Assembly: GCF_003334405.1 (NCBI RefSeq)
Contig: NZ_QOWM01000003.1
Direction: 5' to 3' (one strand)
Source: Escherichia coli
GTDB taxonomy: Bacteria > Pseudomonadota > Gammaproteobacteria > Enterobacterales > Enterobacteriaceae
DNA length: 64,000 bases
In this document: positions 1,374 to 5,200 of the stretch, piece by piece
Position numbering within the stretch: the stretch's first letter is position 1
Layout of the letters: the number at the start of each line of letters is the position of its first letter
Made by a program: the position numbers and the translations under genes
The notes under the pieces: model-generated
What the model was told of the DNA's origin: nothing
Seen by the model: only the letters and a program-made list of their open reading frames with translations
The model's database searches: none

Positions 1374-1640
1374 ATGGCGTGCAACTTAAGCTCCGGATAC
1401 GGGTTATTCCCCTCTGAACAGGCGCGTAAGGACTGGCAAAACGCCCGCAAAAAACTCTCGAGGGCAAAGGTGAAGAAACCTGCTGTGGTTGATCCGGACC
1501 TTATCTGGTCATCACCTGACGGAGAAATACGTCGCTACGACAGTCGCCTAAACATAATCTGTCGCGAGTGCCGGAAGAGCGAAGTTATGCAGCGCATACT
1601 GGCTTTCTATCAGGGTAATTTTCAGGACGTGGCGCAGTGA
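1374..1640 (+). CDS. hypothetical phage protein (88 aa)
   Basis: ORF-track ORF; its stop overlaps the GTG start of the downstream methyltransferase-like ORF. No recognisable motif. Confidence 0.3.
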   Translation: MACNLSSGYGLFPSEQARKDWQNARKKLSRAKVKKPAVVDPDLIWSSPDGEIRRYDSRLNIICRECRKSEVMQRILAFYQGNFQDVAQ

Positions 1641-1993
1641 GTGCACCGGCAACCATTCTTGATATGTGCTGTGGCAGCCGCATGTTCTGGTTCGATAAGT
1701 CTGACGAACGGGCGATATTCAGCGATATCAGAAAAGAAGGATACACATTACGCAATGGGAGACGCTTGATTATCAGCCCTGACATTATCGCAGATTTTCG
1801 TGCATTATCATTTGCAGACGCATCTTTTTCGATGGTTGTATTAGACCCTCCGCATCTTGAGAGTGTTGGTGATAACGCCTGGATGGGAAAGAAATATGGA
1901 CGGCTGAATAAAGATGCCTGGCGTGATGATTCGCGACAGAGATTTAAAGAAGCCTTTCGGGTGTTGAGGCCGCACGGCGTTCTGATTTTTTAA
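1637..1993 (+). CDS. putative SAM-dependent methyltransferase, probably C-terminally truncated
   Basis: 118-aa ORF with DMCCGS (motif I-like) and VLDPPH (motif IV-like, DPPY class). Too short for a complete methyltransferase and followed by decayed sequence. Confidence 0.45.
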   Translation: MSAPATILDMCCGSRMFWFDKSDERAIFSDIRKEGYTLRNGRRLIISPDIIADFRALSFADASFSMVVLDPPHLESVGDNAWMGKKYGRLNKDAWRDDSRQRFKEAFRVLRPHGVLIF

Positions 1994-2255
1994 TGGAATG
2001 AAACGCAAATACCGGTAAGCCAGATTCTGGCACTGACAGACAGAAAACCTGTTATCTGTCAACGAACAGGGAAAAAACGATAAAACCCACTGGATTATTT
2101 TTATGAAAGAGGCATCCAGTGAGTAGATTCGTAAGGCTACAGATACGTATATCTGAATAATTAAATTCAGTTCTGTAAATAAAATTTAATCCTTAACCGG
2201 ATGGATTTCTGCACCCTCAGAACATCAGGAGGCCGCCCGAAAGGGCGGTAGTGAA

Positions 2256-2366
2256 ATGCGAAAGTTCAAAATTATTATTGAAACGGGAATAGCTGGTGGA
2301 GATTTTGAGGATGTATTCGAAGTGGACGATGACGCAACACCTGAGGAAATTCATGACGGAGCATAA
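2256..2366 (+). CDS. small acidic hypothetical protein (36 aa)
   Basis: ATG preceded by AGGAGG (2227-2232) and a GC hairpin with GAAA loop (2233-2248). Below the ORF-track length cut-off. Confidence 0.25.
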   Translation: MRKFKIIIETGIAGGDFEDVFEVDDDATPEEIHDGA

Positions 2367-2603
2367 GAAATTTTCTTTAACTACTGCAATTACTCATACC
2401 ACGAAATAAAAGACGATGAGGAAGAACAAAGTGGCTGATTTTTGTTCAGCTAAATATAACATCAGTTTTGAAGAGCGGGATGAACTATTAATGGACTATG
2501 GTGAGTTACGCGGTGGAAGTGCTGCTGATGTCGAATCCTAGCGTGATGACTATGAAGCGGGAAAAACTCCGGTCGAAGCATATTGTGATGAGTGGGGCGA
2601 TGA

Positions 2604-2891
2604 ATGAGCGAGATTAATTATCAGGAAGGGCATGAAACGGCGGGGCAAGCAAAACCAGTGGCATGGCGATATCGCTACGTGAAAAAAGGCGTTACGGACT
2701 TTCAGGGGAAGTAGTGGTCTGGTGACTGGAAATATGTACCGAAAAAAGAGGATTGTAACGACAGGCCGAACTATCAAATTCAGGCCTTATTCACTGCCTC
2801 ACCAGTCCCAGTTACATCAGAAGAACTGGTTAAAGCTGTGCACTTTTATGAACAACTAAAACGCGAAAATCCACCAACATCCGGCAACTAG
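2604..2891 (+). pseudogene. hypothetical protein ORF interrupted by an in-frame TAG at 2712-2714
   Basis: Same reading frame is protein-like on both sides of the TAG (MSEINYQEGHETAGQAKPVAWRYRYVKKGVTDFQGK / WSGDWKYVPKKEDCNDRPNYQIQALFTASPVPVTSEELVKAVHFYEQLKRENPPTSGN). Confidence 0.35.
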
Positions 2892-3145
2892 ATTAATGGA
2901 TTAACTATGTCGGTTAAACGACCAGCCAACTGAAAAAGCGGAAACCTGATTACAGGTTGCCAGATAAGGCAATGAGCTACCTGGCGCGGAACGGACTGAT
3001 AAGTATGGGGAATGTTTTACGATGAACCTTTAGACTAAAGAGTTTGTAACGCTATGTAAGTGATTTTTTCTGGTTTAGATATTTATATGTCCGGCCAAAT
3101 TGAGGTGTGTTTAAATGTAATTGCACATTGATTGTAGGAGGAATA

Positions 3146-3325
3146 ATGAAAAACGCATTGCAGTTTTTGTTTGTTGCGTTCTGGTTGTTCGCATCATGTA
3201 TGCCCATCATCTTCACAGCAAGGTATATGGAAAAAGTTGATGTTTTGATATTAATATTTGGATATATAAATGCCCTTTTTTTAGGGGTGTTCATGGCGGT
3301 CATGTGCATTGAATACTGGCGGTAA
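3146..3325 (+). CDS. small hydrophobic membrane protein (59 aa, two predicted TM helices)
   Basis: ATG at 3146 with consensus AGGAGG 5 nt upstream. Sequence MKNALQFLFVAFWLFASCMPIIFTARYMEKVDVLILIFGYINALFLGVFMAVMCIEYWR. Sits in an AT-rich stretch. Confidence 0.45.
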   Translation: MKNALQFLFVAFWLFASCMPIIFTARYMEKVDVLILIFGYINALFLGVFMAVMCIEYWR

Positions 3326-3559
3326 ATACAGCGAACTCCATTGGTTTAGTTGGATATTTACTGTGCTGGACAAAAACGGTTTGCGGGGAAATCTTAGTTA
3401 AGTAGAATGACTGCGGGTGCTTGAGGCTATCTGCCTCGGGCATGGACACCAACGGCAGATAGAGAAAAGCCCCAGTTAACATTACGCGTCCTGCAAGACG
3501 CTTAACATTAATCTGAGGCCAATTTCATGCTAGACACATGTAGGTTAGCCTCTTACGTG

Positions 3560-5200
3560 CCGAAAGGCACGGAGAAGCAGGCTATTGTTAACACCAAGCT
3601 GTAATGTCCCCTTTGAACCATTCTAAAATGTCCCCAGACAATTCTCTGGGGGATTTTTCATGATCAAAGAGACTGTTACGATGAGTCATAAGGAACTCCA
3701 CCGACTTCAGATTATTCAGGAACAAGCTGCGGCACGCATTGGCATTTCTATTCGGCAGGTTAAACGTCTGGTGCAACGGTATAGAAATGAAGGGCCTTCT
3801 GGTCTGGTTTCCCACCGACGTGGAAAGCGTCCTAATAATTCCTTTTCTACTGAATTCAGAGCAACAGTAATTTCACTCCTCAAAGGCCGTTACGCTGATT
3901 TTGGACCTACGTTTGCGTGCGAAAAATTGCGCGAGATACACGGTTTATCTTTATCCGTTGAAACTCTCAGAAAGTGGATGATAGAAGAGGGGTTATGGCG
4001 TGAACGCCGTCGTAAAATTGCCCGTATATATCAACGCCGCATGCGACGACCATCTTACGGTGAACTGATCCAGATTGATGGCTCACCTCATGACTGGTTT
4101 GAAAATCGAGGCCCCAGATGTACACTGATCGTTTTCATTGATGATGCCACCAGTGCGTTGATGGCGTTGCGTTTTGTGCCTGCTGAAACAACCCGGGCTT
4201 ACATGGAAACCCTCCGGGGTTACCTTAATGATCATGGCGTACCGCTCGCTCTCTACTCTGATAGACACAGTATATTCAGGGTAAATAACCCAGAGCGGGA
4301 AGGTGAGCTGACCCAGTTCACTCGTGCGATAAAGACACTGGGCATCGAGCCAATCCATGCCAACAGCCCGCAGGCAAAAGGGCGGGTAGAGCGCGCCAAT
4401 CAGACACTACAGGACAGGCTGGTCAAAGAAATGCGGCTTCAGAATATCAGTGATATTGAAACAGCAAATGCATGGTTGCCGACCTTTATTGAAGCCTATA
4501 ACAACCGGTTCGCTACGTCGCCTCGTACTACTGATAATGCTCATCTTGATGTGCACCATTCTGAAGAGGAACTGGGTTATATCTTCAGCCTACAGGCGAA
4601 GCGCGTTCTGTCTAAAAATCTCACTTTCCAGTACAAAAGCAGTGCGTTTCAGGTACGCAGTGAGGGCCGGGGATATCGACTTAGGCATTCGGTTGTTACT
4701 GTATGCGAGAACTTTGACGGTGAAATTAACGTTCTGTATGACGGGAAAGCGCTGGGCTGGGAAAAGTATGTTGATGGCCCGGAGCCTATACCACTGGATG
4801 ATGAAAAGAGTGTCCATGAACGAGTGGATAATGCCCGTATTGATTTACGCTCAAAATACTATGTTAAACCTAAAGCTGACCATCCCTGGCTTACGCGCCG
4901 AACGCAAAGTCATCAGCAAGTTAAGCCCCCGAAGTTACCTAAAAAGAAGCCTGATCCCGATAAAAAAGATTGAAACCAAGATCGATTCGGTTGAGTGCAT
5001 ATCCATTCATAGGGTAGATTCTTAAGTCGCGTTTCTGGTGTTCATTTTCGGGTGGTTTGTTACTTGTTTTACCGGGGATATGCCAGAAACGCGCTGAGTC
5101 AGTCTGGGCGGTGCGCGTAATGAGGCGTTATGGTAAATAGCCTATGCTAATGTCCGCTAAGAGCAAGAAGCGGAAGTTGGCAGTTTTGTGGACTGTCCCC
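3560..5200 (+). mobile_element. insertion sequence carrying the DDE transposase; ends not resolved
   Basis: Single transposase ORF flanked by non-coding sequence. I could not find clean terminal inverted repeats or a target-site duplication by eye, so boundaries are approximate. Confidence 0.45.
3660..4973 (+). CDS. DDE transposase with N-terminal HTH and rve/integrase-core domain (ISNCY/IS1202-like or IS481-like)
   Basis: 437 aa. N-terminal HTH (IGISIRQVKRLVQRY), then D (QIDGSPHDW), D (LYSDRHS) and E (RVERANQT) in integrase-core spacing. Basic C-terminal tail. Confidence 0.8.
   Translation: MIKETVTMSHKELHRLQIIQEQAAARIGISIRQVKRLVQRYRNEGPSGLVSHRRGKRPNNSFSTEFRATVISLLKGRYADFGPTFACEKLREIHGLSLSVETLRKWMIEEGLWRERRRKIARIYQRRMRRPSYGELIQIDGSPHDWFENRGPRCTLIVFIDDATSALMALRFVPAETTRAYMETLRGYLNDHGVPLALYSDRHSIFRVNNPEREGELTQFTRAIKTLGIEPIHANSPQAKGRVERANQTLQDRLVKEMRLQNISDIETANAWLPTFIEAYNNRFATSPRTTDNAHLDVHHSEEELGYIFSLQAKRVLSKNLTFQYKSSAFQVRSEGRGYRLRHSVVTVCENFDGEINVLYDGKALGWEKYVDGPEPIPLDDEKSVHERVDNARIDLRSKYYVKPKADHPWLTRRTQSHQQVKPPKLPKKKPDPDKKD

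Follow-up and report, generated by a model that had tools for sequence, protein, structure and literature searches.

A candidate hairpin-split ribosome-binding site carried in a portable unit by lambdoid prophages of Escherichia coli

In a 64,000-nucleotide stretch of Escherichia coli DNA (from contig NZ_QOWM01000003.1; hereafter the window), a consensus Shine-Dalgarno (SD) sequence, a GC-rich hairpin and a start codon follow one another at the head of a DUF7167 pseudogene in a lambda-like prophage region (Table 1). The best-supported explanation of this segment, which we hold with moderate confidence from sequence analysis and predicted folding, is that it constitutes a hairpin-split ribosome-binding site comparable to those of phage T4. 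Hairpin-bridged ribosome-binding sites are textbook curiosities from two T4 genes. If our reading is true, the present site would be a second, unrelated and far more widespread case, and the arrangement would be a reusable design and not an oddity: the unit occurs in nearly half of the complete E. coli genomes, stands before many genes and alternates naturally with ordinary SDs. This would affect gene calling, since some annotations extend open reading frames (ORFs) upstream through the hairpin, and is relevant to predictors of ribosome-binding-site strength, in which long SD spacings are penalized, as well as to how lambdoid phages shuffle their accessory genes; the unit might also supply synthetic biology with a compact natural insulator part. 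For the window itself it would change little because the gene behind the hairpin is dead.

Table 1. Features of the site in the window, and the gene families found behind the unit with their distances from the hairpin
Feature	Window position	Strand	Hairpin to start (nt)	Remarks
Short SAM-methyltransferase gene	1637-1993			upstream of the intergenic region
AT-rich palindrome CTGAATAATTAAATTCAG	2153-2170	+		5' edge of the conserved ~100-nt intergenic block; phage BLAST similarity starts at 2153
Conserved leader AATCCTTAACCGGAGGGATTTCTGCACCCTCAGAACATC	2188-2226	+		alignment A1, 59 distinct copies
Upstream hairpin H1 within the leader	2200-2204 / 2214-2218			GAGGG / CCCUC (GAGGG-N9-CCCUC)
Shine-Dalgarno AGGAGG	2227-2232	+		directly abuts the hairpin; predicted anti-SD duplex -10.3 kcal/mol
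RNA hairpin, 6 G-C pairs, GAAA tetraloop	2233-2248	+		CCGCCC 2233-2238, GAAA 2239-2242, GGGCGG 2243-2248; optional seventh pair G2232.U2249
A-rich unstructured spacer TAGTGAA, 7 nt	2249-2255	+		unpaired probability 0.3-0.9
DUF7167 pseudogene (PF23768 / phrog_1997)	2256-2438	+	7	starts with ATG 2256-2258; AAA -> TAA at 2364-2366; 36-aa ORF remains
Ead/Ea22-like proteins, MTELTK/MAELTK start (phrog_660/60)			8-9	
DUF4014 membrane protein, 72 aa (phrog_1832)			6	
43-aa ORF			8	
Q-like/sigma-like protein (phrog_79)			11	has its own GGAG
Protein starting MQEIK			9	

Anatomy, folding and chance expectation of the site

In the linear sequence of the window the SD and the ATG lie 23 nt apart, and folding of the hairpin would reduce this distance to 7 nt. 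The first-pass annotation of this DNA had given the coordinates, the 6-bp GC stem, the GAAA loop, the 23-nt gap and the effective spacing of about 7 nt exactly as we find them, and the RNA folding that it had proposed as a check indeed yields the hairpin: the folding energy of the 16-mer is -12.4 kcal/mol (-14.4 kcal/mol with the seventh pair, in which the last G of the SD engages U2249), and in the ensemble of a 150-nt context the stem bases pair with a probability of ~1.0. As for the potential to pair with the anti-SD, the spacer reaches a predicted -0.4 kcal/mol and the 3' arm of the hairpin -6.6 kcal/mol. The latter, the only other SD-like stretch, could be exposed solely at a cost of 12.4 kcal/mol. 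The spacer and the early codons are A/U-rich and unpaired, and between TAA 2187 and ATG 2256 there is no in-frame start codon.

To gauge chance expectation, we searched the 64-kb window for an SD that is followed by a perfect GC-rich stem (6 bp or longer) and, after a further 4-11 nt, by an ATG with an ORF of 30 aa or more. The present site is the single match, and the architecture arose in two of 200 dinucleotide shuffles, i.e. at a rate of 0.01 per shuffled window. The SD-hairpin-ATG arrangement is thus confirmed as real and not a product of chance. Scanning 2.4 Mb of lambdoid loci, we found no non-homologous SD-hairpin-start architectures besides the present family, so that we are dealing with one family and not with a general habit of lambdoid phages.

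Upstream of the SD, the leader holds a further hairpin, H1, whose positions are 99% paired across the copies; its covariation is not significant, and the changes in its 3' arm are wobble-compatible. The window leader differs by one mismatch, a T at 2202 that turns GGAGGG of the H1 5' arm into GGATGG. Because its normal partner is mutated in this way, CCCUC takes part of the SD as its partner in the predicted minimum-free-energy fold of the window copy. The two arms of H1 are themselves SD-like and anti-SD-like, and UCCU at 2190-2193 is also able to pair with AGGA of the real SD. Alternative leader pairings could, on this folding model, mask and unmask the SD. Further upstream, the stop codon of the preceding gene usually falls within the CTGAATAATTAAATTCAG palindrome in intact phages, and a second version of this palindrome, CTGAAAATTTAAATCAG, keeps the CTGA...TCAG arms. 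Such palindromes could be protein-binding sites or weak RNA hairpins; for a LexA box, the arms are spaced 1-2 nt too widely.

Proposed mechanism, the phage T4 precedent and conservation of the site

We posit that the 30S subunit would pair with AGGAGG on the rightward early transcript of the lambda-like (Qin-type) prophage, while the GAAA-capped GC hairpin, too stable to melt, would stay folded, so that 16 nt are looped out. With 7 nt (6-11 nt in other copies) between the base of the stem and the AUG, the latter would then reach a normal SD-to-start distance and could serve as the start codon. Both the persistence of the hairpin on the ribosome and the driving of initiation by the distant SD are steps that we infer. 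The combination of SD, hairpin and short A-rich spacer would, in this scheme, be a portable unit that E. coli lambdoid phages place before varied accessory genes.

The precedent lies in T4, where a hairpin reduces the SD-AUG distance from 22 to 5 nt in gene 38 and from 27 to 11 nt in gene 25, and where mutations that destabilize these hairpins lower initiation (Nivinskas et al., 1999; Malys and Nivinskas, 2009; reviewed in PMC3014915). As in the T4 genes, the SD of the present site is too distant in the linear sequence, where separations above ~15 nt lie well outside the functional range, a stable intervening hairpin would bring it to a working spacing, and the arrangement is kept in close relatives and missing in distant homologues. 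Unlike them, it belongs to temperate lambdoid phages and not to a T-even phage, has no sequence relationship to either T4 site, places the SD directly against the stem and uses a minimal GNRA hairpin of 6-7 bp. Moreover, each T4 case is tied to one gene, whereas the present unit is portable, with at least six gene families behind it in thousands of prophages. The function of the T4 sites was tested by experiment, whereas the unit described here is known from its sequence and predicted folding. By comparison of these features, the element is probably an unrelated and widespread further case of the T4-type split site, to which a portable-cassette feature has been added. The hairpin bridging that the first-pass annotation had proposed by analogy with T4 has thereby gained in substance through the conserved portable unit, the 6-11 nt spacing and the alternation with ordinary SDs detailed below, but covariation in the stem is not significant.

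Variation across the 59 distinct copies bears on this question in several ways. The SD core GGAG is kept in 56 of them (with variants such as AGGAGA, GGGAGG and AAGGAGA), whereas no part of the block varies more than the 8-nt linker that immediately precedes this core. One copy, L031, has lost the SD (ACGAGA) and has GGTGAT immediately after the hairpin. In the stem, 95% of the cells are paired, and the natural variants all keep a hairpin, with energies from -3.3 to -12.4 kcal/mol. Substitutions in the stem are mainly C-to-U changes that give U.G wobbles in the plus-strand RNA (21 distinct sequences, at three positions of the 5' arm), with further C-to-U changes in three sequences at C59U and at another position in copy L252. 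G-to-A mismatches are fewer (eight sequences), one of them compensated to an A-U pair (L076), and seven sequences have an A.C mismatch within the stem. In the covariation test on the 59 copies, 96.9% of the cells were paired and the shuffles reached an equal value, with only one double-change pair; the RNAalifold covariation term is -0.2. This lack of significance comes from the close similarity of the copies (93% mean column identity), and the case for the structure therefore rests on thermodynamics and conservation.

The alternation with ordinary SD sites is best seen in a sample of 80 DUF4014 loci, which were picked by their protein and are hence unbiased as to the leader. In 67 of these loci the gene is preceded by SD, hairpin and 6 nt before the ATG, while the remaining 13, all without the hairpin, have an ordinary SD (AAGGAG or GGGAG) 4-6 nt from the start, in the forms AAAGGAGAGTGAT-ATG/GTG or GGGAGTGAT-ATG. 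Likewise, hairpin-less homologues of DUF7167 use GGAGG, GGGAG or GAGGAGG, placed 4-9 nt ahead of the same Met. Genes that have no hairpin thus show the very spacing that remains where a folded hairpin would be looped out. Most of the hairpin-bearing copies lack an accessible SD at a normal distance from the start, the exceptions being the Q-like family, by virtue of its own GGAG, and L031 with its GGTGAT.

These observations also weigh on the view that the hairpin stabilizes the mRNA by blocking exonucleases or RNase E, or insulates the start region against pairing with flanking sequence, with the A/U-rich start region driving initiation and AGGAGG contributing little. Such a role would suit a very stable, GNRA-capped hairpin, the unpaired A/U-rich spacer and early codons behind it, and a unit that works as a context-independent cassette; however, it sits poorly with the retention of GGAG against the stem next to a freely varying linker, with the acquisition of an SD-like GGTGAT by the very copy that lost its SD, and with the SDs carried by hairpin-less alleles of the same genes. 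We accordingly rate it as quite unlikely.

The loop provides a different kind of evidence. While the stem stays, the loop is found as GAAA, GAGA, GGAA or GTCA, rarely as TAAA or AAAA, and in L031 as the pentaloop GAAAA. This variation over a kept stem argues for a structural role of the hairpin and against a sequence-specific one. With its GNRA-type loop and GC stem the hairpin is similar to lambda boxB, and in a lambda-type nut site a boxA (CGCTCTTA-like) lies a few nucleotides 5' of a 5-bp stem with a GNRNA pentaloop, just past pL or pR. The hairpin might, by this likeness, be the site of an RNA-binding regulator, either a boxB-like target of an N-type antiterminator or the operator of a translational repressor that occludes the SD. 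The short GC stem, the purine-rich GNRA-like loop, the position in early operons on an early phage transcript and beside the SD, and the single pentaloop variant all speak for a kinship of this sort. Against it, every other copy has a tetraloop on a 6-7 bp stem with a loop too variable for sequence-specific recognition, several copies occur per phage, and the unit lies after the replication genes and not just downstream of pL or pR. In addition, the 5' flanks (CAGAACATC or GATTAATGTC) have no boxA-like sequence, a difference from the lambda nut site that holds for CAGAACATCAGGAGG and GATTAATGTCAGGAGG as flanks too, and the hairpin has no Rfam match. A regulator-binding site is, on balance, very improbable.

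Nor is the hairpin likely to be the terminator or processing element of the upstream methyltransferase gene that the first-pass annotation had entertained as its alternative. A terminator, an attenuator or a 3'-end processing signal of that gene would account for a GC-rich stem-loop in an intergenic region, as is typical of intrinsic (Rho-independent) terminators, and the stem-loops of the PeSL elements of T4-type phages do attenuate transcription (PMC2839356). Yet neither strand has a U-tract (UAGUGAAAUG on the plus strand, CCUCCUGAUG on the minus strand), ~255 nt separate the methyltransferase stop codon from the hairpin, and elsewhere the upstream genes are many and unrelated, with just 4 nt and the SD following the stop codon in one context. 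Unlike an intrinsic terminator, moreover, the hairpin comes right after an SD and 6-11 nt ahead of a start, where termination would silence the gene behind it. Neither the hairpin nor the conserved block was called in promoter and terminator scans of the window and of an intact copy, and the one promoter-like hit, at 2251-2278 of the window, falls 3' of the hairpin. We give this possibility hardly any weight.

Distribution and reassortment of the unit

Phage BLAST matches to the site are of two kinds, covering either the whole region or only the ~100-nt block at 2153-2256 that ends at the start codon. We scanned IMG/VR with a 19-mer from the leader, chosen outside the hairpin to avoid a bias towards it, and recovered 124 copies (58 distinct sequences), which have SD and hairpin throughout, save for the SD lost in L031. 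A covariance model built from these copies revealed a second upstream context, in which the core alone stands 4 nt past the upstream stop codon: ...AMSYHND* TAA TGTC (A/G)GGAGG CCGCCCGAAAGGGCGG TAAGAA ATG. A second scan without the first context found the core before DUF4014, DUF7167, a GTG-started Ead-like gene and a protein starting MQETK, and also exposed a third upstream context. Overall, at least six unrelated gene families are found behind the unit and at least three upstream contexts in front of it, with a hairpin-to-start distance of 6-11 nt; the linear SD-to-start distance in the other copies is 22-27 nt, made up of 16-17 nt of hairpin plus these 6-11 nt. As delimited by these sequence comparisons, the minimal conserved unit is the SD, the hairpin, a 6-11 nt A-rich spacer and the start codon, reassorted on both sides.

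With the 73-nt leader plus hairpin as query, the unit gave 3497 matches, spread over 2415 of the 5426 complete E. coli genomes with up to six copies per genome; the carriers include O157:H7, ST131 and ATCC 25922. It is absent from the Rac, Qin and DLP12 prophages of K-12 MG1655, which were searched. In 100,044 GTDB species representatives, exact matches to the 19-mer anchor are confined to two MAG contigs, and at this stringency no unit was found outside E. coli-type phages. An Rfam scan of window positions 1500-4000 with E-values up to 10 gave no match at 2150-2260, its only hit being a sok RNA at 3415-3586, and a literature search for the hairpin sequence found no paper containing it.

Three of the recovered sequences deserve separate mention. 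In the P1-like punavirus vB_EcoM-Ro157c2YLVW (MH160767.1, copy L009, positions 1201-1500), the first half of the leader is fused to a start codon (AACCGGAGGTATATCTATG), and the leader's own GGAGG is used as an ordinary SD; ~200 nt further on there is a hairpin core of the second context, its SD weakened to GGGATG. Parts of the cassette therefore travel independently of one another, and their range is not confined to lambdoid phages. Another copy, L002, comes from a phage deposited as 'Actinobacillus phage vB_Apl-pPE4' with the host Actinobacillus pleuropneumoniae (PP818812.1), which over this region has 92% DNA identity with E. coli lambdoid prophage sequence; on this similarity the attribution to an Actinobacillus host looks doubtful. 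Finally, a genome labelled 'strain DH5alpha' (NZ_CM135829.1, 544045-544117, hit H62) has one copy of the module, perhaps within the phi80-derived insert of DH5alpha, unless the strain is mislabelled.

In some phages two copies lie ~1 kb apart and flank a few genes. A few copies have SD and hairpin with no ORF start behind them, being followed by an inverted gene right after the hairpin or by a queH-like gene ~60 nt off, and from these it follows that causes other than initiation, such as recombination, also maintain or spread the core. Taken with the paired copies and the reassortment on both sides, these start-less junctions suggest, as far as sequence comparison can, that acting as a recombination 'boundary sequence' is a further role of the core, or the way in which it spreads.

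Taken to its extreme, this would make the core mainly a DNA-level 'boundary' or 'linker', i.e. a patch of homology for the shuffling of lambdoid accessory genes, with its RNA properties secondary; such a role is compatible with a split site. The same core does join many combinations of upstream and downstream partners, homology often ends at the 3' end of the hairpin (including at the junctions to the inverted and the distant gene), paired and multiple copies occur within genomes, the copies are ~93% identical with little covariation, and there is precedent in the PeSL cassettes (PMC2839356) and the boundary-sequence model (PMC3233612). However, a pure recombination patch needs no consensus SD, GNRA-capped hairpin or fixed distance of 6-11 nt to a start codon. 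Further, the changes in the stem are biased towards wobbles that are RNA-compatible on the coding strand, and the hairpin-less alleles have an ordinary SD in place of the unit, and not nothing. We consider it unlikely that homology is the main role of the core.

The PeSLs of T4-type phages, which are mobile regulatory cassettes (PMC2839356), offer the closest parallel for the block as a whole. Like a PeSL, it is a conserved intergenic cassette of ~100 bp, running from an AT-rich stretch at the stop codon of one gene to the start codon of the next and enclosing an SD and a GC stem-loop, and it is flanked by variable accessory ORFs at what are marked points of modular exchange. Unlike it, the block shows no promoter or terminator consensus and has its hairpin between SD and AUG, whereas in a PeSL the stem-loop precedes the SD and acts as a terminator, and a strong sigma-70 early promoter is present. 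One may speculate that the core is a dual-purpose mobile cassette, at once a self-insulating translation start, by which any ORF behind it would be expressed independently of context, and a homology patch for accessory-gene swaps of the Red/RecET type. Temperate phages would then have in it their equivalent of the T4-type PeSLs, and an RNA-binding regulator of the phage might read it as well; we offer this combined role as a tentative possibility, and the split ribosome-binding site remains the reading that we prefer.

The downstream gene and its prophage setting

Positions 1400-3400 of the window are 100% identical to E. coli chromosomes such as that of ATCC 8739, where the region is a defective Qin-type lambdoid prophage with the order dicA, dicC, a ydaT-like gene, a replication gene, DUF977, the short SAM-methyltransferase gene, the intergenic region and the DUF7167 pseudogene, followed by further pseudogenes, an ISNCY transposase, ydfW and flxA. 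On the identical ATCC 8739 sequence, the RefSeq/PGAP annotation has a 'DUF7167 family protein' with an internal stop, starting at the equivalent of ATG 2256. DUF7167 homologues from Klebsiella, Enterococcus and Pseudomonas phages and from the Escherichia phage phiWec188 align from residue 1, and ATG 2256 is therefore, by homology, the authentic start codon of DUF7167.

The window gene reads MRKFKIIIETGIAGGDFEDVFEVDDDATPEEIHDGA*EIFFNYCNYSYHEIKDDEEEQSG*, whereas intact phages encode a DUF7167 protein of 57-60 aa with AAA at the position of the window TAA 2364. The start that the first-pass annotation assigned to its gene thus stands, but the gene is not intact, its internal stop at 2364 and hence its pseudogene status having been missed. 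With a nonsense codon in DUF7167, a mutated upstream helper hairpin and neighbours that are also pseudogenes, the window copy is a relic.

Two other assignments of the coding region were considered and rejected. An upstream-extended DUF7167 ORF is contradicted by an in-frame TAA in most copies, the window included, and by distant homologues that start at the same Met. A mini-ORF starting from an ATG or GTG within the spacer is not conserved, the commonest spacer, TAGTTAA, being without a start. Many DUF7167 database entries, in the protein clusters P0003, P0005, P0007 and P0008, are 84-93 aa long because gene callers placed their start at an ATG further upstream, so that leader and hairpin are translated too (…HQEAARKGGSEM…); P0005 has an Arg codon in place of the true DUF7167 ATG. 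The N-terminal extensions of these 84-93-aa entries are probably annotation artefacts due to the unusual SD spacing.

The remainder of the neighbourhood shows further decay. Behind DUF7167, at 2416-2900, a 58-aa ORF that is intact in the phage deposited as vB_Apl-pPE4 (MADFGSTKYN...) has an internal stop in the window, and the next ORF is flagged in RefSeq as frameshifted with an internal stop. The sok match at 3415-3586 on the plus strand spans the full length of the antitoxin RNA (RF01794, 104 bits). The hok/mok coding part expected after it appears to be severed by the ISNCY-family transposase gene at 3660-4973; at the corresponding place in intact relatives lies a Hok/Gef gene, as in the vB_Apl-pPE4 sequence. 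At the other side, the identity with the ATCC 8739 prophage ends at ~1398, so that the DUF977 gene (~1219-1641 in ATCC 8739 terms) is truncated in the window by a rearrangement, and a minus-strand ORF of at least 499 aa runs off the start of the window.
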